Shown here piece by piece: positions 21,144 through 37,481 of a stretch of 64,000 nt of DNA. The position numbers were made by a program, and so were the translations under genes. The notes under the pieces were generated by a model. That model did not search any database and had not been told where the DNA came from. It saw nothing but the letters and a program-made list of their open reading frames with translations. Every line of letters starts with the position of its first letter. Position 1 is the stretch's first letter. Source of the stretch: an uncultured Candidatus Poseidoniales archaeon (lineage in GTDB: Archaea > Thermoplasmatota > Poseidoniia > Poseidoniales > Poseidoniaceae); the NCBI GenBank assembly GCA_902605365.1, contig CACLCM010000001.1, positions 6,762 through 70,761 of the forward strand, written 5' to 3'.

Positions 21144-21934
21144 ACCAGCCTGCATATGGGTTGAAGAAGGATAGGCTTCCCGCTTTGGCTATGCGCCAAT
21201 CACTGCCGCGAGTTCCCCAAGACCGTATTGCGGTCTTAATTGGCGCCAAAGGTGCCACTAGGCGTGAACTTGAAGTCGCTGCAGGATGCAAGAGTCTTCA
21301 GATTGATTCTACAAGTGGTGACATCGATGTTACTTGGCCTGAAGCGGGTGAGTATGACCCTGTTAAGGCTCTAAAATTACCCGATGTAATCAAAGCAGTC
21401 GGAAGAGGAATGGCTCCTAATAGAGCGATTCAATTATTACAAGACGATTGGTTTTTTGAAATGGTTGACCTCAAAGAACACGTCGGAAAAAGGTCGAGTC
21501 AACAGCGCCGAATCCGTGCAAGAATTATCGGTTCTGAAGGTAAAATCAGGAAGATGATTGAGCAACACACTGGTACTGAGATTTCAATTTACAAATCCAC
21601 AGTTGTGCTTGTTGGCGAAGGCTCAGGGCTAATTAGTGCCAGGCAAGCAATCGAGATGTTAGCGAGTGGTAGCGAACATGGAACCGTAATCAAATATCTA
21701 GAGAAAGAGCGCAGAAAGTCAAGAATGGAAGCACGTTCTCTTGATTACATTGTGACCAAAGATGTCTCCGAAGAATCAGAAGATTTCGCCGACCTAGTAC
21801 CTGGTTTGGCAGAAGTATCTCAAAGACGTAATCGAAGGTTGAAAGCGGCACAGGTAGACCCTGAAGATGCTGAAGAAGTATCCTCTATGATGGAATTATC
21901 TGAGGATGAGGAAGTCAGTTGGGAGGAGGAGTGA
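21140..21934 (+). CDS. KH-domain RNA-binding protein (Dim2/Krr1-like) with acidic C-terminus
   Basis: Two KH-like GxxG-type segments (IAVLIGAKGATRRELE; IGSEGKIRKMIE). Conserved position downstream of the RIO kinase. Confidence 0.65.
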   Translation: MNQPAYGLKKDRLPALAMRQSLPRVPQDRIAVLIGAKGATRRELEVAAGCKSLQIDSTSGDIDVTWPEAGEYDPVKALKLPDVIKAVGRGMAPNRAIQLLQDDWFFEMVDLKEHVGKRSSQQRRIRARIIGSEGKIRKMIEQHTGTEISIYKSTVVLVGEGSGLISARQAIEMLASGSEHGTVIKYLEKERRKSRMEARSLDYIVTKDVSEESEDFADLVPGLAEVSQRRNRRLKAAQVDPEDAEEVSSMMELSEDEEVSWEEE

Positions 21935-23777
21935 TTTTTCTCCTCTGGAACCAAGTGATTGCGAAACCTGCACACAATAGAGCGATCATTCCTGGAGCGA
22001 ATGATGTCACGACTCCAATTCCACTGACAGTCGCCCCTGTAACCATCATGTGGTGATTATTGTTCGACTCATCTCTCTCATCGATGATATCATTGGGGTC
22101 GATTACTAATCTCAAATCCCATTGTCCAGTGTTAGGAACAACATAGTCCCACATCAATAATTCACAAGTACATTCATCAGAAAGATTGCCCCCTTCAACT
22201 ACAACAGACTGCATTGTAGTCCAATCTACATCTGCACTACGGTCTGCAGGAGCGGCTTGAAGGTAAACTGTTACTGCACCACCATATGCTTGGTTTGCTT
22301 CTAGAAGACTCGTTATTACAATCCCTCCATTGGTATCTCCAGGTCTAACCACTAATCTGTCAACATTGGTTTCTGTTGCATTCCATGATAGGTCCAGGCC
22401 CGGAAGTACTTGGAATGCGGTTGGAATTGTTGTGAGTTGATTACCCGCTTCATCTAATACGACTGCTCTCAACATTAGGTATTGGCGAGACTTTGTGGCC
22501 CATGAAGACAATGGAACAGTTCCATCTAGTCCTGATACTCCCACGTCAATCCATCTCCCCGATTGGTCAGGGGTTGCTCCTACTCCATTCAAATCAAATC
22601 CGTATTGAAGTTTGGAGTTTGGCAAATCAATTCCTGAACCTAGGTCTTGAGCTGCGAACGAGATGTTAGCCGAACCGATGAGACTTGTTGTCAATTCATC
22701 AACAGTCCAGCCCAAACCTTCAGGCTCACTAACATCGACCTTGATGTCTACATCGATGGAGTCTCCAACGTTCCCAACCTTGTCGACAGCTCGCATAGAG
22801 ATCACGTGTTCTCCTTCATCAAAAACGAGAGTTACACTTGATGTAGATACATCACTCCAAATGCCATCTCGCAAAATTTGCACATATGATAAACCAGAAC
22901 CGCTGCCATCATCGGTAGCGTCATCCAAACCTGAAATAGTTACTGAGTTGCTATCAGTCCATTCTTCTCCCTCACCAATAATTGGTGTAGACATTGTAGG
23001 TGATGTTCTATCTATTCCAATGAACATAGTTTTGCTTACAGATAGTCCTGAGCCATCCCATACGGTCAGCCTTGGATTGTATGTTCCTTCAGAGAGGGAA
23101 CCGGTATTCCAATCCCATCCATATGCAATAGTTCCCGGTCCATCATCGCTAGGCGTACCTGGCCCGGGGACATTAGCAAGACTAGCATGTGTTAAATCGT
23201 CATCCATTGCAGCCCAAGAGAAACCCAATGTTGCATTCGCATCTAGCGAATACCAGGCTCTGTCAATAGCTGTAGTTCCACTTCCAACTCCAGTGTTAGA
23301 CAATGTGAATGATGTGATAATCGGGACTTGATTAACGATATCAAATTCTCCGCTGGTAAACCAAGTAGTGTGATTATTAGCAGTTGAGTCCCATGCTCTT
23401 GCTCTAAATGTCCAACTTCCATTTGCATAATCTGTTGTATCGATATGAGTTAGCCAAGGTGTCGTAGTTAGATTGGCTACTGTATCCCAATTGCTGCTAT
23501 CTGATGAAATTTCAATTTCGATACTAGATAATACTCCACTTCCAGTTGAAGAGAAACTCAGAGTGAATAGTCCCTTCACATCTTCACCTTGGGAAGGACC
23601 GTTAGAGAACACCAATTGTATGTCGCTTTCAGCAAATTTGACTTGTTTAGAATCAGCAAGAAGCATATCTCCGCTTTGCCCAATAGTCATGATGACTACG
23701 ACCAGAAGTACAGAGATGAATCGCCTCATCAAACACCTGACATCACCACTCGCCCTTGAATGCTCGCATTGCAACAC
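21915..23777 (-). CDS. Secreted surface protein with C-terminal TM anchor (likely true start at MRRFISV..., about 23729)
   Basis: Signal peptide RRFISVLLVVVIMTIG. Ser/Thr/Asp/Gly-rich ectodomain. C-terminal APGMIALLCAGFAITWFQRRK. Confidence 0.55.
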   Translation of the reverse strand: MLQCEHSRASGDVRCLMRRFISVLLVVVIMTIGQSGDMLLADSKQVKFAESDIQLVFSNGPSQGEDVKGLFTLSFSSTGSGVLSSIEIEISSDSSNWDTVANLTTTPWLTHIDTTDYANGSWTFRARAWDSTANNHTTWFTSGEFDIVNQVPIITSFTLSNTGVGSGTTAIDRAWYSLDANATLGFSWAAMDDDLTHASLANVPGPGTPSDDGPGTIAYGWDWNTGSLSEGTYNPRLTVWDGSGLSVSKTMFIGIDRTSPTMSTPIIGEGEEWTDSNSVTISGLDDATDDGSGSGLSYVQILRDGIWSDVSTSSVTLVFDEGEHVISMRAVDKVGNVGDSIDVDIKVDVSEPEGLGWTVDELTTSLIGSANISFAAQDLGSGIDLPNSKLQYGFDLNGVGATPDQSGRWIDVGVSGLDGTVPLSSWATKSRQYLMLRAVVLDEAGNQLTTIPTAFQVLPGLDLSWNATETNVDRLVVRPGDTNGGIVITSLLEANQAYGGAVTVYLQAAPADRSADVDWTTMQSVVVEGGNLSDECTCELLMWDYVVPNTGQWDLRLVIDPNDIIDERDESNNNHHMMVTGATVSGIGVVTSFAPGMIALLCAGFAITWFQRRKITPPPN

Positions 23778-23870: not shown

Positions 23871-26654
23871 ATGGCAAGGCCAACTGTGACCACTCTAATC
23901 CTCGCAATGATGGTTCTCGCAGTCATGCCATTGTCAGTAAGTGCTGAAGATAGTGGTGGAGTTCAGGCTTCATCTTCGACTGTTTCTATCTCTCCTTCCG
24001 ATCCTGTCGAAGGTAGTTCAATCACAATTCGCCTCACGATGTATAATGACAACAATTTTGCTGTAGATGATGTACTGTACAAGTTTTATTGGGATGGAGT
24101 AGCATCGAATAAGTTGATTGTTGCCGATACAGTTGACATACCGGCAAAATCTACAATCGATGTTGAAGTTGTGAAGTCTGGCTTAACCGTTGGTGAACAC
24201 AAAGTATGGATTACTTTCGATTCAACCGGTTCAGATGAACAAATGTTCTTCACTGAAATAATGGTATCTGGCTTAGCCGACCTAGAGGTAACGTCAATTT
24301 CTACAAGCCCGGAATCTGTTTATTCTGGCGATTCAGTTGAAATATCAACTTTGGTCAGTAATACTGGCTCCGAAGATGCAGAAGCTAGTCGTTTGCAATT
24401 AGATTTGGACAGTCAAACTGAGATTCTAGATGTCCCTTCAATATTAGCAGGAGAAGATGTGTGGGTAAATCACACACTAATCGCTCCTGCTGCTGGAGAT
24501 TACGATGTTGAGGTTACAGTTGATTTAGATGATGCAGTTATTGAGGCTGATGAGAACAACCAATTTTCTAATTCACTTTCTGTTAATGCAAGAATGGATT
24601 TGTCACACGTAGGGGACTTGTCGATTGAAATCGAGTCTGGGAGTATACAGGGCCCTTGGGTTATTTCTGGTGTCTTGAAAAGAACTGGTGGAGAAGGGAC
24701 TACACAAGTGCCAATGAAACTGGAGATTCTAGACCAAAATAGTCAGAGCCTTCCTTTGCCGATATTTTACGTAAACCTCACAGGCGGGGAATCGGTTCAA
24801 CAATCATGGTCATATGACCTAATCTATGATTACGTCTCAGTATTGGCTCCAGGTAACCATCAGGTTACAGTGATAATAGATCCATTTACCTCTGCTAACT
24901 TCACTCAAGAATCGACAAATAATGACAGAATATCTGGGTATTTTGACAAGTATGATGTTCCTGACGTTTCAGTAGACCCATACGCATCACCGTCCAAGCC
25001 TTCGGTAACAAGTGGCAATAATGTCGACTGGACAGTAACAATCGCAAACTCTGGACAAATTGAGGTCAAGGGATATCTGATATACACGTGGGAAGGGCAA
25101 ACTTCCAGTGAGTCTTCTGATTCTATTATTACAATTCAAGCCGGAGACACTCACATTTGGCAACGCACATTGTCAACAGAAAGCGGGGCTCATACAGCAG
25201 AGTTTGAAGCACAGTGGGTTCCTTTGTCTAGTTCATATGATGCAAATCCTTTGAATTCTTATGCCAACGGTAGCATAGAAGTAACTGCTCAACTAAAATT
25301 GACATGGTCGAAAACCTCGATGTCTCTTGTTGATTCAACAGGAGAGCCAGCTTCAACACCATTGATGGCTGGTGATGAGTATACAGTTTCAATCAAAGTA
25401 GCCTCCCAAGAGACAGGTTCGGTGAACTATTCTTGCGAAAATGGCTTGGGAGTAGTATTCGAGGTAATTACAATCGATGTCACAGAGGGTGGCCAAATCT
25501 TCACTATTGAATGTACATTTACAGCAGATGCACCATTTACAAACATAGACCTAAGGCCAAGTAATTTGGATGTTAGCGGAGTCCAAACATGGAATTGGGA
25601 TACCAAGGAGTCAAGCAATAATGTGGCTGATGAAGTAGGAGATATGACCTTCCAAACCGCTGGAATGATCGCATTAATCTGTCTCGTTCTAATTGCAGTA
25701 TTAGTTGCAGCAGTAATTCTAACCAGGGAAACAGAGGAAGAAGTTGAGAGAGACATCTTTGACTATTGTCCCGCTTGTGATGCAGAACTGGATGACGGAG
25801 TTGACAGATGTCATTCATGTGGATTCAATTTGAAGAAAGCAAGAAAGCAATTCCACGATTGTGATGCTTGTGGTGAATCTATACCAGATTTGCTTTCTGA
25901 TTGTCCATATTGTGGTTCATCCCAAGATGTCTCCAAATATTTCGAAAGGCGCGAACAGAAGGTTGTCGAGAAGAAAACAATCGCTCTTGTCGAAGAAGAA
26001 GAAATCGACCCAGAGACAATTCATGCTGCAGGATATGAAGGGTTTGACGAAGCGGTCAAGGAATTCGGTTATGATTCAGATGACTTAGAAGAACACTGGG
26101 ATGAGGGAATTGCAAAAGCAGAGGCTGAAGTTGAAGCCGCTTATGACCGTAGAGTAGCATCTGAATACGAATTCGATCCGGATGACGAAGAAGCCATGTC
26201 GGTGGTTACTACTACCTTGAAATCAATAGATGAGACCTTCAAAGGGCACGATATTGATGCAATTCTAGATGAAAAGAATATCAAGGCTCATTTGGATGAT
26301 GGCAGCGAATTAAGCGCCAGCGATGCAGATATTCGTGGAAGGCTATTCGAAATAACAGGCGAAGAAGGAGTAATGCCTGGAGATGAAGTTAACATCGGTA
26401 TGGGAATACAAGATCGTTCACTTGCAGGAAATGTTCTTCCTGAAGAAGCAATGGATTTCTCATTCGATGAAGAAGTGGTCGATGAAGAAGCCGACGAAGT
26501 AAATCCAGTCGCTGCTGCTGCCGCTGAAACCAAGAGACGCCGAGGTGTAAGGCGCAGGTCTAAGCAAGCCAAGACCGCAGAGTGTGGTGCTTGTGGTGCG
26601 GAAATTGCGGCTGATGCCAACGAATGTGCTACATGCGGCGCTAAGTTCGAGTAA
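23871..26654 (+). CDS. Large secreted surface protein, single TM, long acidic cytoplasmic tail carrying three CxxC...CxxC zinc-ribbon modules
   Basis: Signal peptide LILAMMVLAVMPLSVSA. TM MIALICLVLIAVLVAAVIL. Then CPACD...CHSCG, CDACG...CPYCG and C-terminal CGACG...CATCG. Confidence 0.6.
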   Translation: MARPTVTTLILAMMVLAVMPLSVSAEDSGGVQASSSTVSISPSDPVEGSSITIRLTMYNDNNFAVDDVLYKFYWDGVASNKLIVADTVDIPAKSTIDVEVVKSGLTVGEHKVWITFDSTGSDEQMFFTEIMVSGLADLEVTSISTSPESVYSGDSVEISTLVSNTGSEDAEASRLQLDLDSQTEILDVPSILAGEDVWVNHTLIAPAAGDYDVEVTVDLDDAVIEADENNQFSNSLSVNARMDLSHVGDLSIEIESGSIQGPWVISGVLKRTGGEGTTQVPMKLEILDQNSQSLPLPIFYVNLTGGESVQQSWSYDLIYDYVSVLAPGNHQVTVIIDPFTSANFTQESTNNDRISGYFDKYDVPDVSVDPYASPSKPSVTSGNNVDWTVTIANSGQIEVKGYLIYTWEGQTSSESSDSIITIQAGDTHIWQRTLSTESGAHTAEFEAQWVPLSSSYDANPLNSYANGSIEVTAQLKLTWSKTSMSLVDSTGEPASTPLMAGDEYTVSIKVASQETGSVNYSCENGLGVVFEVITIDVTEGGQIFTIECTFTADAPFTNIDLRPSNLDVSGVQTWNWDTKESSNNVADEVGDMTFQTAGMIALICLVLIAVLVAAVILTRETEEEVERDIFDYCPACDAELDDGVDRCHSCGFNLKKARKQFHDCDACGESIPDLLSDCPYCGSSQDVSKYFERREQKVVEKKTIALVEEEEIDPETIHAAGYEGFDEAVKEFGYDSDDLEEHWDEGIAKAEAEVEAAYDRRVASEYEFDPDDEEAMSVVTTTLKSIDETFKGHDIDAILDEKNIKAHLDDGSELSASDADIRGRLFEITGEEGVMPGDEVNIGMGIQDRSLAGNVLPEEAMDFSFDEEVVDEEADEVNPVAAAAAETKRRRGVRRRSKQAKTAECGACGAEIAADANECATCGAKFE

Positions 26655-26799: not shown

Positions 26800-27366
26800 A
26801 TGATGAGACCTCGTAAGGCAATGTCTGCTTTCGTCATGCTGGCCATTCTAATGGCGTCCAGCATGGGGTGCATCGGACTTGTTCCTGCTCGTGAATTCAT
26901 GGAAGACCTTCGTGAACCTCCACAGTTGATTCAGGAAATTGAACGAATAAATGTCGACCACGTATTTGTTACAGATATTACCGATATCACATATAGTACA
27001 AACTATACCAACTCTTTCTATTTTGAGGTCGATTCAGATGTTTCAGAAATCAGTGCTTACATCACTGCGGCTATGGCTCTTGACTTGGTCATACCAGTTC
27101 CGACCGAAGTAAGATATGTCAAAGCAGTACTAACCGATGCTGACGGAAATCAAATTTGGTATGAGGAGTTAACCGAAACCAAAAGGCCAGCCGTAGCAAC
27201 ATTTCAACAGCCTCTTGCTGAGGGGACCTGGACATTATATGTTGATGCTAGAGGATATGGAGAAGAAATTGGTAATCTCTACAAAGATTCCTTCCAAGTT
27301 TTGATCAAAGTCGATAGGTACTGTTGGGAGTACCATGGTGAAGAAGGCTGCACCTATGACGATTAG
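26800..27366 (+). CDS. Small secreted putative lipoprotein
   Basis: Signal peptide with lipobox-like LMASSMGC; no other recognisable domain. Confidence 0.45.
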   Translation: MMRPRKAMSAFVMLAILMASSMGCIGLVPAREFMEDLREPPQLIQEIERINVDHVFVTDITDITYSTNYTNSFYFEVDSDVSEISAYITAAMALDLVIPVPTEVRYVKAVLTDADGNQIWYEELTETKRPAVATFQQPLAEGTWTLYVDARGYGEEIGNLYKDSFQVLIKVDRYCWEYHGEEGCTYDD

Positions 27367-28541
27367 ACTAGTCTAGAGTCACAAGCATATCTTCTAGAAC
27401 AACTTTCGCACTTTCCTTTGCGATTATGATTTCTTTCCGCCCCGCCTTCAGTCATCAATCTTTGAATTTCTTTGACGGCAGAAAAGAGGGAATGCTTGTT
27501 TGAGTCATTCCAATCAATCGAATGTAGGTTTTCACTTCCATACCTCAGCACTCCATAAGGAGGTTTTCTACCAGTTGTAGATTCGACCAAATGGAGATAG
27601 GCCAATAACTGCATTTTGTGGGACTTGTGAGGGCTCTTCGGTATCTTTCCAGTCTTTTGCTCAACAGGGATAAATTCACCCTCGACGATGACAATTTGAT
27701 CTGGTCTTCCCCGTAGCCCAGTAAAACCATCAACTAAGAGTCCAGCCTTTGATTCATCATCCGAATAAGTTACTTCAATATCTGCTTCGATACCAGCTTC
27801 CATTCTAGCAACTTCCAGCGCATTATCGGCAAGCAGTGCTCTCTGCAATTGCCAAGAAGCGAGCAGTGTCCATAGCATTGCCATAGATACCAAAATAAAT
27901 CCAGCTTGTTCCTTATCTGCCGCCCAAGTCAAGCCAATTGCGTGAAGGCCAAATATGGTGGCTCCCATTAGCAAACCGGCTTCGACCCTTCCACCTTGCC
28001 CCCATCCGCCAATAAATCCGTACGGCTGAAATGTGTTAGGAAGAATTGTATCATCTAGGTTTTTTAAATCATCAAATTCATTGGTCCTTTGAATCGGATT
28101 ATCAAACCATTTTCTCCACGGGAGATATACTGCAATCAGTCCTAAAAACAGCCAAACTATCGCTAAAATAGTTAGATATCTTGCAACATCCTCTGGAGCT
28201 CTAGTATTGGAAATAGTCATGAAAATTATTGCATCTGAAATGAAAATAATGATTATCGCGAACCACCATGACCAAATCACTAATGCTCTTTTCAATTCAT
28301 TTTGTTTTTGTTTGAAACCAGATACTTTTTGATGTATTTCAGCATGCTTTTCTCTACCTGCAGAAATTGCATCTCCTCGTCCCGTTTTACCATCTCGGGC
28401 CAATGCCCAAGACAGCGGACAATATGCGTGCCTCTCCAAATCACTAGCGGAAACATGGAGAGCATCACCTTCCTTATTGCGCCAAAAACCATCATCGCTT
28501 TCAACTGCGATTACGGATTCATTGGCTCTCTCAGTAGTCAC
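27363..28541 (-). CDS. Cas4-like PD-(D/E)xK nuclease (DUF83 family, Fe-S cysteines) with a 4-TM membrane insertion between nuclease motifs I and II; solo, no cas/CRISPR context
   Basis: N-terminal ERHAYCPLSWAL (Cas4 N-terminal Cys). GREKHAEIH (motif I). Four hydrophobic helices. RPDQIVIVEGEFIPVEQKTGK (motifs II/III D...ExK). QLLAYLHLV (QxxxY). C-terminal CESCSRRYAC (Cx2Cx5C). Confidence 0.7.
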   Translation of the reverse strand: MTTERANESVIAVESDDGFWRNKEGDALHVSASDLERHAYCPLSWALARDGKTGRGDAISAGREKHAEIHQKVSGFKQKQNELKRALVIWSWWFAIIIIFISDAIIFMTISNTRAPEDVARYLTILAIVWLFLGLIAVYLPWRKWFDNPIQRTNEFDDLKNLDDTILPNTFQPYGFIGGWGQGGRVEAGLLMGATIFGLHAIGLTWAADKEQAGFILVSMAMLWTLLASWQLQRALLADNALEVARMEAGIEADIEVTYSDDESKAGLLVDGFTGLRGRPDQIVIVEGEFIPVEQKTGKIPKSPHKSHKMQLLAYLHLVESTTGRKPPYGVLRYGSENLHSIDWNDSNKHSLFSAVKEIQRLMTEGGAERNHNRKGKCESCSRRYACDSRLV

Positions 28542-28667: not shown

Positions 28668-29300
28668 GTGGATGGTGGCCCGAATGCTGGAGTCAATACT
28701 ATGACTGAACTTCTTATCGACCGTGAAACCTATGAGACACATGCTGTTCACATTGGTACTCAACAAAAGAGCGCAGATATGGCACAATTTATTCAAGAGG
28801 TTCGCTCTGATGGATTGTACCTGATTGATATCGAAATCACAGATAGCAGAATACGTGCAATCTCTCAATTCCTTGGTCGCTACAATGCAGCCAACATCAT
28901 GGTTGTCAGTGCCCGCCAATACGGACAGCGCCCAGCACGCATGTTCGCAGAGGCAATCGGCGCAAGAGCCAGCGTAGGTCGTTTCATTCCAGGGAGTCTG
29001 ACCAATCCTGCTCTACGTTCCTACGTAGAACCTGATATGCTGTTCGTTACAGATCCTGCAGCAGACCAGCAAGCACTACGTGAAGCTGTAAACACAGGAC
29101 TTCCAATCGTTGGAATCTGTGATGCTAACAACAATCTTCGAAATGTCGACCTAGCACTACCTGCTAACAACAAGGGTCGCAAATCCCTTTCTCTTCTTTA
29201 CTGGATTCTAGCACGTGAAGTTTTGAAAGCACGTGGAGAGACAACTGACGAGGCATGGGCAGAAGCTCAAGACCTAGAAGACTGGGAATCTACTTTCTAA
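28668..29300 (+). CDS. rps2: 30S ribosomal protein S2 (uS2), archaeal type
   Basis: HIGTQQK, VSARQYGQRP, GRFIPGSLTNP, VTDP, NNKGRKSL blocks diagnostic for archaeal S2. Confidence 0.9.
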   Translation: MDGGPNAGVNTMTELLIDRETYETHAVHIGTQQKSADMAQFIQEVRSDGLYLIDIEITDSRIRAISQFLGRYNAANIMVVSARQYGQRPARMFAEAIGARASVGRFIPGSLTNPALRSYVEPDMLFVTDPAADQQALREAVNTGLPIVGICDANNNLRNVDLALPANNKGRKSLSLLYWILAREVLKARGETTDEAWAEAQDLEDWESTF

Positions 29301-32462: not shown

Positions 32463-35084
32463 CTATTCTAGTAATCTTCTAGTCTCATCTGGGTCGATGA
32501 AGATAGCACCTATGATCACCACAGTTTCCAATACTGCAGAGATAAGGAATAGTGTTGGATAATCAAATCTGCTTGCAAGAGGGTCAGTCAATTGGTAGCC
32601 AATAACCGCTGACAAATTCATCATAGCCATGTAGGCAGTAAATTGCGTTCCACCAACTTCGCCCCAGGTAATCCTCATCATCAATGAATATACGTTGATT
32701 GCAACCATTGCCCAAAGCAATGTGTGAATCGACCATATAGACATCATGAACAAACTACTACTCCAAAGTGACTCGCTCATTCCCCAAAATGCAGTGGCAA
32801 GTGCAGCCCCAAGCGCGGAATAAATCATCACTGATTTGCCGCCAAACTTTCTCCCAAGCTGACCTCCTACAATGTATCCAATCATAGTTACAACAAGTAT
32901 TACTCCACCCTTCGTGGCATTGAATTTTTCTTGAGACCAACTCAATTCTGCCAAGAACAATAATGGTAGAACTGGCACGAGGAAGAATGAGAGAGATATC
33001 ACCAAACTAAGGGCGATTCCTAACTGGGTTGAGCGAAGTGAAAATGCAGTTTTTACATTTGACAATATTTCTTTGAAAGTACGTTCCTCTTCTTCTGCCT
33101 TAGTCCCATCTGGGTATGTGATTTCTATCGTAATCTCCTCATCCCAAGGGAATAATTTCTCTCCGGGCCTCTCTCTCATCAATAATGGGACCAGCATGAT
33201 GACTAGGAGGATTGGAATCTGGAGTAATATTGCACCAGTGATTCCGATTTTACCTATGATTGTCCCTAGTCCCGCTCCACCGATTATTCCTCCAACGGTT
33301 TTGGATGTGAACATGTAGCTGTTGACCTTCTCCATTTCATGCGGCTTTAGTATGTCAACCGCAAGAGCATCTGTGCTGACATCTTGTAGAGAGGTGAATA
33401 TATTGTAGACCAAAAACATCGTCGCAACCAACTGAACATTGCTTGCCGGATTAGGAATGAATAACATCGAAGATAGTATCAAGACCATTCCTGTTTGTGC
33501 GATTAAAATCCAAGGTCTTCTTCTTCCGAACTGGCGGTATTGGAAGCGATCTATTACCGGGCCCCATAGGAATTTCAGTGACCAAGGTAAAGTTCCTAGA
33601 GTTAGTAAAAATGCTAACTCCTTTGCTGCAACTCCCTCTACTGCGAGGAATGTTACGAAAGTTACAGTGATGAATCCCCAAGGTATTCCTTGGGCGACAT
33701 ACAGAGCGCATAGAGTCAGTACTCTTGCCCGATAATTATCTATCAACGTTTTACCTTCAGAATCGGATTCTTTAGGTCCTGAAATTTCAGAATCATCTTC
33801 CAAAATCATTCCTAATTGGAATTGGTCTCTTCTTATAGTAATGAATCCTACAACTGCAAACATTCCTAAGAACCAAGGCGAGAACAGTATTCCCGAAATA
33901 CTACCAGTGCCAACCGACATAGAAGATGCCGAATCTTCTTCGCTAGTCATATCCGATTCATTGGAATTCCAATCTAGCCATGCTAGAGTTGCAACGACAT
34001 CTAAGCCAGTTTGTAGACCAGATTCCAAATTATTTCGTCCTCCTGCAAGAGTATTAATTACTGCAACATTATCGCTTTGTGAGTGTTTTGGAGTTTGTTC
34101 ACAAGAATCACCTTCTTCGAAAATATACTGATGCTGACCCCTTAACCAAGTGGCAGTATGGTTGTTCATTATGAAATTGAAATGGTCGGAGTTTCCTTTG
34201 GTATCATCGATAACACGAACCCATTCATCAGGATGAGATAGGTCCGAATTAATTTGTTTGAGATGGTTTTGAAACCATTCAGCATTCGAACGCATTTCAT
34301 CTGTAACCTCTAATCCATTATTCTCATAATATGACCAATCTGAAACAGGAGATGTGAACATGTAAAGCGTCCAATAATCCTCATCACAGCCCGATAATTG
34401 ACTTGCTAATGGTGTAGGGACTGGCCAATTAAGTCCGAACATATCGAGATTGACATAGGTGACATTAACATCATCAGGAATCTGTTCGGTAACGAAATGA
34501 AGACTACCCATCCCTCCTCCTTCAGAAGATGATGACCCCTGCCATTCCTCATAGTCCCACCATGCTAATTTCCACGTGTGTGAAGGAGTTTGGTTCCATT
34601 CCGAAAAAGTTCTCGCCAATTCCAGTAGTGATCCACTTCCTGTACCGTCATCATAAGCTCCTGAATTTGTACAACCAGTATATGTCTGTCCGATTAGAGG
34701 CGGAGGAGAATAGCAAATCGCATCATGATGGGCACCTACAACAATCCAATCATCCTCTTGAGTTCCATTGATGGTTACAACCAAATTTTCACAGTTATTA
34801 CATTCTTGAGTTTGGAAAGGTTGCCTTTCAACATAATATCCCATCCCCTCTAACTCTTCAGCAATCCAGTCTCTTGCGTCAAAGTTAGCCTGAGTGTCAA
34901 TCTTTCTGTAACCGAAGTCTGCCATCGCCACCATGTTGTCATACGCAGCACTCCCTTCAGGCCAAGCAGGAGGAACTTCATCGGCTTGTGCTTTGACATC
35001 ATTTGGATATGCAAGTGCGCTTGAAAGTGATACTTGAACTACCAATAGGCCCAGAAGGATTGCGAAAACCAACCTCCTGTGCAT
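32463..35084 (-). CDS. Fusion protein: secreted M28-family zinc aminopeptidase domain + AmpG-like MFS permease domain (about 12 TM)
   Basis: Signal peptide. M28 ligand motifs VVGAHHDA, AYDDGTGS, DYEEW, NLDMFG, SDHFNF. C-terminal half with LPWSLKFLWGPVIDR (AmpG/MFS signature) and multiple TM helices. Confidence 0.75.
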   Translation of the reverse strand: MHRRLVFAILLGLLVVQVSLSSALAYPNDVKAQADEVPPAWPEGSAAYDNMVAMADFGYRKIDTQANFDARDWIAEELEGMGYYVERQPFQTQECNNCENLVVTINGTQEDDWIVVGAHHDAICYSPPPLIGQTYTGCTNSGAYDDGTGSGSLLELARTFSEWNQTPSHTWKLAWWDYEEWQGSSSSEGGGMGSLHFVTEQIPDDVNVTYVNLDMFGLNWPVPTPLASQLSGCDEDYWTLYMFTSPVSDWSYYENNGLEVTDEMRSNAEWFQNHLKQINSDLSHPDEWVRVIDDTKGNSDHFNFIMNNHTATWLRGQHQYIFEEGDSCEQTPKHSQSDNVAVINTLAGGRNNLESGLQTGLDVVATLAWLDWNSNESDMTSEEDSASSMSVGTGSISGILFSPWFLGMFAVVGFITIRRDQFQLGMILEDDSEISGPKESDSEGKTLIDNYRARVLTLCALYVAQGIPWGFITVTFVTFLAVEGVAAKELAFLLTLGTLPWSLKFLWGPVIDRFQYRQFGRRRPWILIAQTGMVLILSSMLFIPNPASNVQLVATMFLVYNIFTSLQDVSTDALAVDILKPHEMEKVNSYMFTSKTVGGIIGGAGLGTIIGKIGITGAILLQIPILLVIMLVPLLMRERPGEKLFPWDEEITIEITYPDGTKAEEEERTFKEILSNVKTAFSLRSTQLGIALSLVISLSFFLVPVLPLLFLAELSWSQEKFNATKGGVILVVTMIGYIVGGQLGRKFGGKSVMIYSALGAALATAFWGMSESLWSSSLFMMSIWSIHTLLWAMVAINVYSLMMRITWGEVGGTQFTAYMAMMNLSAVIGYQLTDPLASRFDYPTLFLISAVLETVVIIGAIFIDPDETRRLLE

Positions 35085-35155: not shown

Positions 35156-36391
35156 TCAGACATCAGTCTCGCCAGTTTCAGGGTTTGAAACAGGTGGTAA
35201 GTCTAGAATTGCTCTTTTGACATTAGCGCGCAATAGAGACAAATCTCCGTAACATATCAGAGAATCTCCGAATCTTAGATTCATATCTGGTTCTGGATTC
35301 CAAATCAGGTCACCTTCTCGGGATAATGCGAATACAGGCATTTCTCCCTTGAATATCTCACTAATTGGTAAACCGATTAAGTGTGGATGATTACGCATAT
35401 GAACCGATAGAACACCTTGGCCAGGAATAGTTCTCAATAACTGGTCAACGTTGACTTCATTAAAATCAGATTCCGACATTACATATTCAATAATCGCCGC
35501 TGCTACATTTACGCCACTTGCTTTCTCGATACCTTCTAGGCCAGGTGATGAATTTACTTCCAAAACTAGAGGCCCATTATTGCCCTCAAGAAGGTCAACT
35601 CCTGCGACATTCAGGCCGAGAACTCTAGCTGCTCTGCAAGCGACTTCAGCGTACTCATCACTAATCTCAACACCTTCTACAGTCCCGTTTAGATGGTAAT
35701 TAGAACGGAATTCTCTTCCACGAGCCTTTCGCCTCATACATGCTACAACTTTGCCGCCAACAACCAGGGCGCGAATGTCTTTGCCGTGACTTTCTGCAAT
35801 ATATTCCTGAATCAAAACCGCTTTACCAGTTACGAGTAACCCTTGAACTAGATTGCGAGTCTCATGCAGAGTGTGTCTAAGGAAAACACCTTGTCCTTGA
35901 GTACCTTGAGTGACTTTGACCACAGCAGGCAATCCGCCAACCGCTTCGATTGCACGTTCGATATCTTTCATATCTCTGACATATGCAGTTCTAGGGGTTG
36001 GGATTCTGTTTCTTGCAAGAATCTGCGAAGAGTGTAATTTATCTCGACTTTGAAGGATTCCTTGACTAGTATTTGCAGTCCAGACATCTAACTGTTCAAG
36101 GTGCCTTAGAACTGATACTCCGTGCTTTGTTATCGAATGGCCAATTCTAGGAATTACCGCGTCATAATCGAATTTTTGTCCTTGGTGAAGGATACCAATA
36201 TCCTGTTCAGCCACGAATAACGAAAACTGCATAGGGTCAAGAACTGCAACATCCAAGTCTCGCAGTCTCGCTTCTTCAACTAAACGACGTGTACTATACA
36301 ATCGCGGCCCCCGCGAAAGAACAGCCAACCTTGTCGTCATGGTCATCGAGGCAACCCCTACCTTTTTCAGTCCTTTGCCAACATTAAACAA
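35156..36391 (-). CDS. RimK-family ATP-grasp glutamate ligase (RimK/MptN/CofF-like) with C-terminal TrkA-C (RCK_C) domain; true start probably MTMTTRL... near 36346
   Basis: ATP-grasp blocks VVKVTQGTQGQGVF, LIQEYI, LLEVNSSPGLEGIE. C-terminal VFALSREGDLIWNPEPDMNLRFGDSLICYGD fits the RCK_C pattern. Confidence 0.75.
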   Translation of the reverse strand: MFNVGKGLKKVGVASMTMTTRLAVLSRGPRLYSTRRLVEEARLRDLDVAVLDPMQFSLFVAEQDIGILHQGQKFDYDAVIPRIGHSITKHGVSVLRHLEQLDVWTANTSQGILQSRDKLHSSQILARNRIPTPRTAYVRDMKDIERAIEAVGGLPAVVKVTQGTQGQGVFLRHTLHETRNLVQGLLVTGKAVLIQEYIAESHGKDIRALVVGGKVVACMRRKARGREFRSNYHLNGTVEGVEISDEYAEVACRAARVLGLNVAGVDLLEGNNGPLVLEVNSSPGLEGIEKASGVNVAAAIIEYVMSESDFNEVNVDQLLRTIPGQGVLSVHMRNHPHLIGLPISEIFKGEMPVFALSREGDLIWNPEPDMNLRFGDSLICYGDLSLLRANVKRAILDLPPVSNPETGETDV

Positions 36392-37481
36392 TCGTTCAAT
36401 TCAAGTTCTGATTGGCGATGGGACGGACATGAGCGAAGAAATTTCTGAAGAACCTACGGTTGATTCCGAAGAAGAAGAAGCTCCTGAACTCACCATCGAA
36501 GAACATCAAGAGGCACTCAAAAAATCACGCTGGAATGTCTTCATGTACCTCGGTTTAGCAGTTGTTTTATTCGGGTTTGCTTTATTCCCATTCATGAGTT
36601 TGACTCTATCTGTCGATGAAGGAATTGGCTCTATCGATACAACAGTAGATGTTATCGGATTATCACCGGGTGGTGAAGATTTCACCGATATCCCTGTGGA
36701 AATGGAAATAGTCGTTCAGTCTTTGCCTACCGATGTACAGAGTATCGAGGTATTCATGATCAAGAATGCTGAAGGCTGTGAAGCTACAGATGGTTCAGTA
36801 GAAAAAACTCGAAATCTTCTGCAACAAGGGAATTCTGAACATCCCAATAGTTATCTTCTCATCAACGACCCGGTTGAGTCACAAACATATGATGTTGAAT
36901 TCTCTGTTGACCCTGGTAAATATTGTATCCAGATTGTAGTAGATACTCAGAGTCAAAACTTCCAAGGAATAAATGTTGAATCAGAAATTGATATTTATCC
37001 AGCGCAGTTCCCTCTAGCAACAATTGGAGTGATTTGCCTTCTTCTTTCAGCATTCGCATTTATTGGAGCGCAAAAGCATGGCAAATTTGTGAAAGGTTTG
37101 GTTGAACCAAAGAGCGAGATTAGTGTTGAGGACGCAGTATTGGCTCAAACAACTTCGACTCGTATTACAGCAGGCCCAAGTGGTCCGCCAACTGGGCCTA
37201 CTGGACCTCCGGCCGCAGGACCTACTGGACCTCCCGCAGCAGGCCCTACTGGGCCACCAGCTGCGGGCCCTAGCGGAGCGCCAGAGGTTGCTAGCCCAGT
37301 AGTCCAAGAAGTTGTAGAAACTCCTGTTGTGGTTGAAGAACAAGTAGAAGCGGTTGCAGATGTTTACGAAGACCAAGGAGATGGCTGGTTCTTCCGCAGA
37401 TTACCTGATGGCTCTTACGACCAAACGGTATATGTTGTCGAAGATGGTCAATATGTTCCGTATGTCGAGCCTGAGGCCTGA
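36339..37481 (+). CDS. Membrane protein with acidic N-terminus, 2 TM segments and a C-terminal Pro/Gly/Ala low-complexity repeat (GPTGPPAAG x3); true start likely MSEEISEE at 36429
   Basis: ORF; hydrophobic segments VFMYLGLAVVLFGFALFPFM and IGVICLLLSAFAFIGA. 27-bp tandem repeats. Confidence 0.5.
   Translation: MVIEATPTFFSPLPTLNNRSIQVLIGDGTDMSEEISEEPTVDSEEEEAPELTIEEHQEALKKSRWNVFMYLGLAVVLFGFALFPFMSLTLSVDEGIGSIDTTVDVIGLSPGGEDFTDIPVEMEIVVQSLPTDVQSIEVFMIKNAEGCEATDGSVEKTRNLLQQGNSEHPNSYLLINDPVESQTYDVEFSVDPGKYCIQIVVDTQSQNFQGINVESEIDIYPAQFPLATIGVICLLLSAFAFIGAQKHGKFVKGLVEPKSEISVEDAVLAQTTSTRITAGPSGPPTGPTGPPAAGPTGPPAAGPTGPPAAGPSGAPEVASPVVQEVVETPVVVEEQVEAVADVYEDQGDGWFFRRLPDGSYDQTVYVVEDGQYVPYVEPEA
37190..37275 (+). 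repeat. Tandem 27-bp repeat (3 copies) encoding GPTGPPAAG
   Basis: CCTACTGGACCTCC(G/C)GC(C/A)GCAGG(A/C) repeated in frame. Confidence 0.7.

Follow-up and report, generated by a model that had tools for sequence, protein, structure and literature searches.

A Cas4-family nuclease interrupted by a predicted four-helix membrane domain in Poseidoniales archaea

Introduction

What does an archaeon use a Cas4-type nuclease for when neither cas genes nor a CRISPR array lie near it and the enzyme appears to be built into the membrane? The question is raised by a gene in a 64,000-nucleotide (64-kb) stretch of DNA from an uncultured Candidatus Poseidoniales archaeon (GenBank assembly GCA_902605365.1, contig CACLCM010000001.1, positions 6,762 to 70,761), the whole of which is called the window here. 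A sequence-only reading of the window had described the product as a solo Cas4-like iron-sulfur (Fe-S) nuclease divided by four transmembrane (TM) helices, and had proposed DNA processing at the envelope, possibly of viral origin, rather than a part in CRISPR adaptation. Cas4 homologues occur in about 90% of archaeal genomes, many of them outside CRISPR loci (PMC5704561), and the M. mazei solo-Cas4 is reported to show metal-dependent degradation of DNA in linear and in nicked or supercoiled form (PMC12501428). The profile, structural-model and comparative analyses reported here make it highly probable that the product of the window gene is a solo Fe-S PD-(D/E)xK nuclease of the Cas4 family whose sequence is broken by a membrane domain of four helices.

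Results

The nuclease gene (27363..28541, minus strand) encodes 392 aa from a GTG start codon, with its stop codon at 27363-27365, and was identified from the open reading frame (ORF) listing and from Pfam, NCBIfam and PADLOC Cas4 matches. An in-frame TAG lies 16 nt upstream of the GTG and a G-rich stretch directly precedes the start. All of the Cas4/DUF83 signatures previously read from the sequence are present in the translation, their coordinates being verified by translation of sub-ranges: Y40-C41-P42, motif I G62-R-E-K-H66, the motif II aspartate D281, motif III E294-Q-K296 and Q311-L-L-A-Y315, such that the complete set of RecB-type motifs (G-x3-H, D, E-x-K, Q-x3-Y) is found, followed by the C-terminal cysteine motif C378-E-S-C381-S-R-R-Y-A-C387. 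The protein contains four cysteines in total (C41, C378, C381 and C387), corresponding by sequence to the Fe-S pattern of one N-terminal cysteine plus C-x2-C-x5-C; the cluster itself is predicted. The N-terminal nuclease segment comprises residues 26-84 (28290..28466, minus strand), with C41 encoded at 28419-28421 and motif I at 28344-28358, and the C-terminal nuclease core comprises residues 252-392 (27366..27788, minus strand), with D281 at 27699-27701, E294-Q-K296 at 27654-27662, Q311-Y315 at 27597-27611, R370-N-H372, and C378x2C381x5C387 at 27381-27410.

These are not chance motifs, as they are kept through an alignment of 96 family members extending down to 28% identity. Residues invariant in this alignment are S31, E36, Y40, C41, G62, H66, W130 and W224 in the N-terminal piece and membrane part, and G278, P280, D281, P292, K296, G298, P301, P304, S307, H308, Q311, Y315, L318, G330, Y334, R370, H372, K377, C378, C381, S382 and C387 in the C-terminal core. 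E294 is nearly invariant, being retained in at least 90% of the sequences.

In searches with the native protein, Pfam families PDDEXK_1 (E=2e-12) and Cas_Cas4 (PF01930; E=2e-10, 41.2 bits against a cut-off of 22.7) match residues 241-388 only, and the PADLOC Cas4 match has E=1e-18. When residues 77-251 were removed in silico and residues 26-76 joined to 252-392, the 192-aa product scored 66.3 bits with TIGR00372, above the cut-off of 65, in an alignment spanning positions 2-179 of the 180 in the model, and aligned with PF01930 over positions 7-158 of 160; no Pfam family is matched at E<=1 by the excised insertion. A profile of the 96 family members matches the solved Cas4 structures 4ic1, 8d3l and 4r5q, and in a second, weak stretch its YCP/G-x3-H region aligns with the N-terminus of 8d3l. 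The assignment of both pieces to Cas4 in the sequence-only reading is therefore upheld for the C-terminal half, and end to end for the spliced protein, but not for the N-terminal piece searched alone, whose assignment depends on the search with the spliced protein, on weak alignments of this piece to 8d3l and AdnA, and on the fold comparison described below.

An AlphaFold2 model of the window nuclease, built from the 96-sequence alignment, has a mean predicted local distance difference test score (pLDDT) of 70.5 and a predicted template modelling score (pTM) of 0.58. The pLDDT is 82-91 over residues 11-50 and 77-95 over residues 271-370, and 51-71 over the last ~20 residues, including the Cx2Cx5C cluster. 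Foldseek returned Cas4, MGME1, Dna2 and AdnAB as the best matches of the model. As the fold alignment covers 185 residues, and the C-terminal piece only 141, the N-terminal piece is predicted to sit in the Cas4 position. The Cas4 fold is formed by one contiguous domain in the predicted structure, indirect evidence which suggests that the two nuclease pieces (residues ~26-76 and 252-392) reassemble as one Cas4 fold around the membrane domain, as the structure-model check had been intended to show. One modelled helix (residues 56-109) runs unbroken from motif I, which holds the metal-binding His66, into TM1 and a second (211-249) runs unbroken from TM4 into the linker toward the catalytic sheet; both continuous helices are seen again in a second model, of a 331-aa relative (pLDDT 76.8, pTM 0.66). 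Profile, fold and comparative evidence agree, bearing out the description of the protein as a split Cas4-family nuclease with a four-helix membrane domain.

Relative to canonical Cas4, the insertion between motif I and motif II comprises ~175 residues (77-251; 27789..28313, minus strand), bounds which are set by the in-silico splice, and its four TM helices are borne out by hydropathy. It consists of the TM segments, called by Kyte-Doolittle scan, juxtamembrane helices and a 44-aa cytoplasmic loop, and has no Pfam family of its own. On the minus strand, TM1 (residues 86-110; 28212..28286) and TM3 (residues 186-206; 27924..27986) are defined by hydropathy, and TM2 (residues 121-141; 28119..28181) and TM4 (residues 213-233; 27843..27905) by hydropathy and the model, TM4 being continuous with the linker helix to residue 249. 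The loop (residues 142-185; 27987..28118, minus strand) is specific to the Marine Group II (MGII) form, is missing from a 320-360-aa class of relatives and is modelled at a pLDDT of 37-48. W130 in TM2 and W224 in TM4 are the only residues of the membrane part which are invariant across the whole family. In 62 MGII orthologues the invariant residues of the membrane part are D103 in TM1, P141-W-R143, F176-x-G-G-W180, G184, E187 and H200, with W142-R143 directly following P141 at the end of TM2, and loop conservation taking the form F176-x-GGW180-xxx-G184. E187 stands at the cytoplasmic start of TM3, which also holds H200, and a glutamate at this position recurs in the other four-helix class (consensus YERIIL). 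Conservation of TM3-TM4 approximates that of the nuclease core in the 62 orthologues (entropy 0.99 vs 0.86), and the membrane part may have a lineage-specific additional role in MGII. Because helix number varies from 1 to 8 and W130 and W224 alone are invariant, the membrane part is better viewed as an anchor than as a conserved channel or transporter, and the suggestion that it serves mainly as an anchor, possibly as a regulator, is speculative. A similarity of the membrane region to the rhomboid protease GlpG obtained with the family profile (E 0.01-0.14) was rejected as an artefact of hydrophobic composition, ~55 profile positions being stretched over ~160 residues with no catalytic Ser/His motif.

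The window nuclease represents one of several forms in a Thermoplasmatota family whose members carry 2, 4 or 8 inserted helices. Sorting of the archaeal members by length and by the hydrophobic segments of representatives yields four forms, all of which possess the N-terminal YCP/G-x3-H piece and the C-terminal core: the MGII form of ~390-410 aa with 4 helices and the 44-aa cytoplasmic loop, a second four-helix class of ~320-360 aa, a two-helix class of ~255-285 aa and an eight-helix class of ~500-600 aa. Apparent odd helix counts are an artefact: within the nuclease core, the Q-x3-Y helix gives a marginal hydrophobic peak. This survey recovered the same insertion in MGII orthologues and, beyond what was known to the sequence-only reading, the 2-, 4- and 8-helix forms elsewhere in Thermoplasmatota. 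Named sources of family members are Thermoplasmata, Candidatus Natronoplasma (Halarchaeoplasmatales), Thermoplasmatota and Poseidoniaceae, and the proteins are filed in databases as "CRISPR-associated protein Cas4" (the name used by NCBI and JGI) or "Dna2/Cas4 domain-containing protein". The closest non-archaeal relatives are ~170-aa proteins of Chloroflexota (Anaerolineae and Thermoflexia; P0240-P0269, P0389-P0506; loci L087-L089), in which one N-terminal anchor helix leads directly into the C-terminal core. They have neither the N-terminal cysteine nor motif I, retain only three cluster cysteines, and are 31-35% identical over the C-terminal core, with the common ending R-[NS]-H...C-x2-C-x5-C. 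Since these relatives are also anchored, attachment to the membrane is common to the whole clade and only its mode varies; judged from these sequence comparisons, membrane attachment is the ancestral theme.

The side of the membrane on which the nuclease lies was predicted from Lys and Arg residues counted within 12 residues of the helices. Bins of 1, 2, 4 and 8 helices are reliable; the "3 TM" bin represents miscounted four-helix proteins and the charge bias is reversed there. Lys+Arg on the nuclease side and the opposite side, respectively, amount to 8.8 and 1.6 in the four-helix form, 22.1 and 3.1 in the eight-helix form, 5.1 and 1.2 in the two-helix form and 3.0 and 0.1 in the one-helix form, and a hand count in the window nuclease gave 9 and 3. 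The even helix number of the archaeal forms places both nuclease pieces on one side of the membrane and, by the positive-inside rule, the bias of Lys and Arg to the nuclease side would therefore place the nuclease in the cytoplasm, which agrees with the cytoplasmic location of Fe-S assembly. As the catalytic and cluster ligands are all invariant, E294 nearly so, the enzyme is expected to be active. Thus, the nuclease domain and Fe-S cluster quite probably face the cytoplasm, held by two rigid helices within a few nanometres of the membrane, in an active enzyme.

Homologues are numerous. A word-indexed search (clusters at 90% identity, E<=1e-3) detected 1,135 clusters, the best 120 of which are all full length (389-425 aa) and 75-99% identical, and an exhaustive search of 50%-identity representatives gave 863 matches, 327 of them below E 1e-10. 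A scan of one genome per species detected 551 loci, the best 80 of which all derive from Poseidoniales, including both Poseidoniaceae and Thalassarchaeaceae; synteny counts for Poseidoniales given below refer to these 80. The ratio of nonsynonymous to synonymous substitution rates (dN/dS) of the nuclease gene against its two closest orthologues is 0.06-0.07 overall and 0.04-0.10 in each of the N-terminal piece, membrane region and C-terminal piece. The gene is a vertically inherited, single-copy core gene of Poseidoniales under strong purifying selection. Separately, a contig filed as part of a Yoonia sp. (alphaproteobacterium) metagenome-assembled genome (L077, CAXRJJ010000133.1) carries an archaeal Dus / uS2 / membrane-Cas4 block and very likely reached that public record through contamination during binning.

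The reported absence of other cas genes and of a CRISPR array from the 64 kb was confirmed. No CRISPR-like repeat array and no Rfam family match were found in the window, and among its 52 large ORFs only that of the nuclease matches any Cas model when searched with the PADLOC cas and defence profiles. cas genes are likewise absent from the ~6-kb flanks of the 80 orthologous loci, which have common housekeeping neighbours, and from eight Pfam-annotated loci of other classes. The cas1, cas2 or other cas genes and adjacent array which characterize a CRISPR-associated Cas4 are thus not found, in agreement with the earlier proposal that the protein does not serve CRISPR adaptation. Within PADLOC-DB 2.0 the nuclease matches generic Cas4, Cas4-Cas1 fusion and DruK (PD-(D/E)xK) models, all on the nuclease core, and partner genes of the defence systems in that database, and hence any known system, were not detected in the window. 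Lying outside both CRISPR-cas loci and mobile elements, the gene is a solo-Cas4 sensu Hudaiberdiev et al. 2017. The suggestion of a virus-derived function was not sustained, as no relative was detected in a scan of IMG/VR or by tblastn in GenBank phages and the gene, being inherited vertically, belongs to the core set and keeps its place in a fixed housekeeping block. BFVD yielded generic Cas4-like exonucleases only, without membrane parts, and a plasmid search with the Chloroflexota form yielded ordinary Cas4-like genes only.

The neighbourhood of the gene was surveyed in MGII and in other Thermoplasmatota, revealing a fixed housekeeping block in Poseidoniales and different neighbours elsewhere. 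The Poseidoniales block consists of uS2 (divergent), the nuclease, a lipoprotein (convergent), a 927-aa CARDB protein and a 620-aa protein, the first four genes being present in 72-78 of the 80 species. The gene for ribosomal protein uS2 (28668..29300, plus strand; Pfam Ribosomal_S2) adjoins in 78 of 80 loci and marks the housekeeping context. The lipoprotein gene (26800..27366, plus strand; 188 aa, lipobox-like SSMGC) holds the same position in 76 of 80 loci, and its tail-to-tail overlap of 4 nt with the nuclease gene, as earlier recorded, is real according to the ORF listing. The CARDB protein gene (23871-26654, plus strand), syntenic in 72 of 80 loci, encodes a protein in which a signal peptide and a CARDB ectodomain are combined with a single TM helix (residues 599-617); its cytoplasmic tail contains an acidic stretch in addition to two double zinc ribbons and a further zinc ribbon at the C-terminus. 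The 620-aa protein (21915-23777, minus strand) accompanies the CARDB protein at 63 of 80 loci; it has a hydrophobic segment at either terminus, and its similarity to Ig-like/CARDB sequences is only faint. The rest of the window is also housekeeping in character, encoding complex I subunits, ribosomal proteins, eIF-1A, RIO kinase, Dus and UvrC. The fixed block indicates vertical inheritance in a stable chromosomal region and is not by itself a functional link.

Outside MGII, eight-helix genes lie directly downstream of a gene for a 1,162-1,447-aa bitopic protein, with an overlap or gap of 4 to 11 nt, which carries cytoplasmic zinc ribbons (in one case also helix-hairpin-helix (HhH) and TPR domains) and extracellular lamin-tail domains. 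The bitopic protein and the MGII CARDB protein have opposite orientations and no homology apart from the zinc ribbons. The eight-helix genes are convergent with a lipoprotein and 2-TM gene pair, which recurs at two four-helix loci. In two Thermoplasmata classes, membrane Cas4 thus stands tail-to-tail with a conserved gene pair, the first gene encoding a lipoprotein of 141-151 aa and the second a 2-TM protein of 102-122 aa with the motif F-x-x-F-E-E-E-M-L-K-M-R (minus strand; L081 8734-9524, L084 7659-8440, L090 5295-6073, L086 6993-7800, L091 7007-7763). The MGII lipoprotein and the lipoprotein at the equivalent position in other Thermoplasmata have no homology detectable by hhalign (probability 0.9-7%). 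In one four-helix subgroup the membrane Cas4 gene is preceded on its own strand, at a distance of 25-39 nt, by a PF14811 TPD gene (plus strand; L082 6200-6976, L085 5201-5962, L092 5211-5972) and has GlmS downstream. PF14811 TPD is the family of human CDIN1/C15orf41, a predicted PD-(D/E)xK nuclease, and the TPD and membrane Cas4 genes may form a two-nuclease operon. An operon is not claimed for the family because neighbourhoods vary by lineage and the lipoproteins are not detectably homologous.

Two other features of the window were recorded. An 873-aa ORF (32463-35084, minus strand) joins an M28 peptidase domain (100-324) to a Major Facilitator Superfamily transporter (459-829), an unusual fusion, and three tandem copies of a 24-nt, CCTACTGGACC-rich unit (37184-37272, plus strand) lie inside ORF 36339-37481 and probably encode a short proline/glycine-rich peptide repeat.

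Discussion

The window nuclease resembles several known systems in part and none of them completely. CRISPR-associated Cas4 proteins (TIGR00372/PF01930; 8D3L of type I-C, the 7MI4 Cas4-Cas1 fusion, 4IC1 SSO0001 and 4R5Q Pcal_0546) lack the ~175-residue membrane insertion, and the window nuclease further differs from them in having no nearby cas1, cas2 or array, in being encoded by a core gene of the chromosome and not within a mobile defence locus, and in having family motifs of its own, K-T-G-[RK]-x-P-[KR]-x-P-x-x-S-H and H-R-N-H-N-R-x-G-K-C. The Fe-S nuclease domains of Dna2, AddB/AdnAB, Exo5 and MGME1 are helicase-attached or soluble, whereas the window nuclease has no helicase domain; to our knowledge, none of the former is membrane-integral. 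ComEC combines a metallo-beta-lactamase nuclease with a conserved channel domain. The window protein resembles ComEC and membrane-associated competence nucleases by functional analogy only, a nuclease being coupled to a polytopic membrane domain; it has neither a competence membrane domain nor a metallo-beta-lactamase nuclease, shows no sequence or profile similarity to ComEC, and differs in its PD-(D/E)xK nuclease and a poorly conserved membrane part of 1 to 8 helices. The Chloroflexota ~170-aa "Cas4" (e.g. P0247, P0389) is likewise membrane-attached with the nuclease on the K/R-rich side, but is bacterial with a single N-terminal helix and three cluster cysteines, whereas the window nuclease has an internal insertion and four. 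Solo-Cas4 proteins (Hudaiberdiev et al. 2017, PMC5704561; M. mazei, PMC12501428) are similarly stand-alone, without CRISPR context and with four cluster cysteines. Those described are soluble, unlike the membrane-integral window family, and no mention of TM segments or a split domain was found in these two reports. A membrane-inserted Cas4 was not found described in the literature consulted, including PMC5704561, PMC13621843, PMC4158269 and PMC11706807, an absence which is not proof of its being unpublished; the split, membrane-integral architecture is apparently undescribed.

What, then, might such an enzyme do? DNA processing at the envelope, as the sequence-only reading proposed, would be a reasonable role. 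In Cas4, Dna2 and AddB the Fe-S cluster staples an N-terminal helix to the C-terminus, and these enzymes act on free DNA ends or single strands. By analogy, the window nuclease would trim or degrade DNA ends appearing at the inner membrane face, its most likely substrate being linear DNA, viral or environmental, that enters the cell, which would make it a helicase-less, membrane-positioned counterpart of RecBCD/AddAB end degradation. This DNA-end role is proposed because of what is known of the Cas4/Dna2/AddB family and the degradation activity of the M. mazei solo-Cas4, and we offer it, with mostly incoming linear DNA as substrate, as a tentative suggestion. Identity, topology and role combined form the best overall explanation, towards which we lean on balance, and several observations weigh against it. 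Regarding identity, the native protein scores 61.2 bits against the TIGR00372 equivalog cut-off of 65, slightly below it, residues 1-84 alone give no significant profile match, the piece being too short, and confidence in the modelled membrane part is no more than moderate (helices at a pLDDT of about 60-77, loops <50, pTM 0.58). The positive-inside rule is the single support for the topology. Regarding role, strict vertical inheritance as a single-copy core gene is an unusual pattern for defence genes, no DNA channel or uptake machinery was identified, no partner gene conserved family-wide was found in the 80 Poseidoniales loci and eight Pfam-annotated loci, neighbourhoods being lineage-specific, and in one Chloroflexota lineage the Cas4-like gene lies upstream of nadK-recN, pointing weakly toward repair.

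The last of these observations belongs to an alternative that we hold about equally likely to a role on incoming DNA, namely housekeeping genome maintenance at the membrane, in which the nuclease would act on ends, flaps or breaks of the cell's own chromosome during repair, recombination, replication termination or segregation. The protein would then be the Thermoplasmatota counterpart of the near-universal archaeal solo-Cas4, the tether serving simply to localise or restrain the enzyme. Its single-copy core status, fixed housekeeping block across Poseidoniales and very low dN/dS, together with the lack of relatives in viral collections, fit such a role, as do the position of the Chloroflexota relative directly upstream of nadK-recN, the TPD/CDIN1-family predicted nuclease gene upstream in one Thermoplasmata subgroup, and the frequent occurrence of archaeal Cas4 homologues outside CRISPR loci (PMC5704561). 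Housekeeping leaves unexplained, however, why a membrane-integral build with 2 to 8 helices is kept under strong selection, and Mre11, Rad50, HerA, NurA and RadA are not conserved neighbours in any archaeal locus examined.

If the membrane domain is itself active, the protein could be the nuclease component of an unrecognised archaeal apparatus for DNA crossing the cytoplasmic membrane, whether injected viral genomes or environmental DNA, a possibility we consider unlikely. Here the helix bundle might form oligomers or transmit events at the membrane to the active site via the two continuous helices, and possible partners would be the neighbouring envelope proteins, namely the lipoprotein together with the large bitopic proteins that bear zinc ribbons or HhH domains in the cytoplasm. 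Somewhat less likely again is a membrane-gated suicide or defence effector, whose helical bundle would sense virus entry or depolarisation and activate the nuclease on viral and/or host DNA. The continuity of the motif-I helix with TM1, and of TM4 with the helix entering the core, in two independent models provides a plausible mechanical link, TM3-TM4 are as conserved as the nuclease domain within MGII with polar D103, E187 and H200 invariant, and the M. mazei solo-Cas4 is reported to lower growth when overexpressed and to degrade dsDNA (PMC12501428). An anchor nevertheless fits better than a sensor where the membrane part ranges from 1 to 8 helices with two tryptophans alone invariant family-wide; moreover, the gene lies outside defence islands, no PADLOC system partners were found, and its distribution is not patchy. 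We give slightly less credence still to a DNA translocation apparatus in which the protein would form an oligomeric ring with a pore lined by its helices, and the nuclease would digest either a single strand or the ends of passing DNA, as a functional analogue of ComEC. Oligomers are on record among Cas4 proteins, toroidal for SSO0001 (cited in PMC13621843) and of ~318 kDa for the M. mazei solo-Cas4 (PMC12501428), and large membrane-spanning neighbours with cytoplasmic zinc ribbons occur in two lineages, one with an HhH DNA-binding domain. Against a pore, charged or polar pore-lining residues are not conserved family-wide, one- and two-helix forms exist, the insertion matches no Pfam family, the ComEC/competence family included, and the large neighbours are not homologous to one another apart from the zinc ribbons.

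Two further explanations are essentially excluded. A genuine adaptation Cas4 that works in trans with a CRISPR-Cas locus at another genomic site would accord with the NCBI and JGI naming and with a sequence and fold closest to type I-C and I-G Cas4; against it stand the lack of any cas gene or array in the window, the 80 orthologous flanks and the eight loci of other classes, the native score under the equivalog cut-off, and the expectation that a membrane-fixed Cas4 could not readily join the Cas1-Cas2 integrase on an array. The least probable is an artefact, either a frameshift joining an N-terminal fragment and membrane protein to a truncated Cas4 or a decaying pseudogene, which is suggested by the significant native profile match in the C-terminal half only and is contradicted by the uninterrupted architecture in >1,100 clusters from independent assemblies and in 80 species-level genomes, a dN/dS of about 0.06 in each part, the invariant N-terminal Cys and His, and the single fold of the model.

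A phylum-level lineage that includes the most abundant surface-ocean archaea thus keeps a Cas4-type enzyme in the membrane under strong purifying selection. The design is unusual, a catalytic domain being split by a polytopic insertion and restapled by a predicted Fe-S cluster, and the number of inserted helices has changed (1, 2, 4, 8) with retention of the active site. In hundreds of genomes the automatic label "CRISPR-associated protein Cas4" misleads, and because of it CRISPR components could be overcounted in marine archaea. If the protein were part of an apparatus for DNA crossing the membrane, Fe-S DNA nucleases would gain their first membrane-integral example, and DNA entry in the most abundant planktonic archaea would for the first time become open to study. 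The membrane build provides a concrete, testable clue to function: the substrate would have to be DNA at the inner membrane face.

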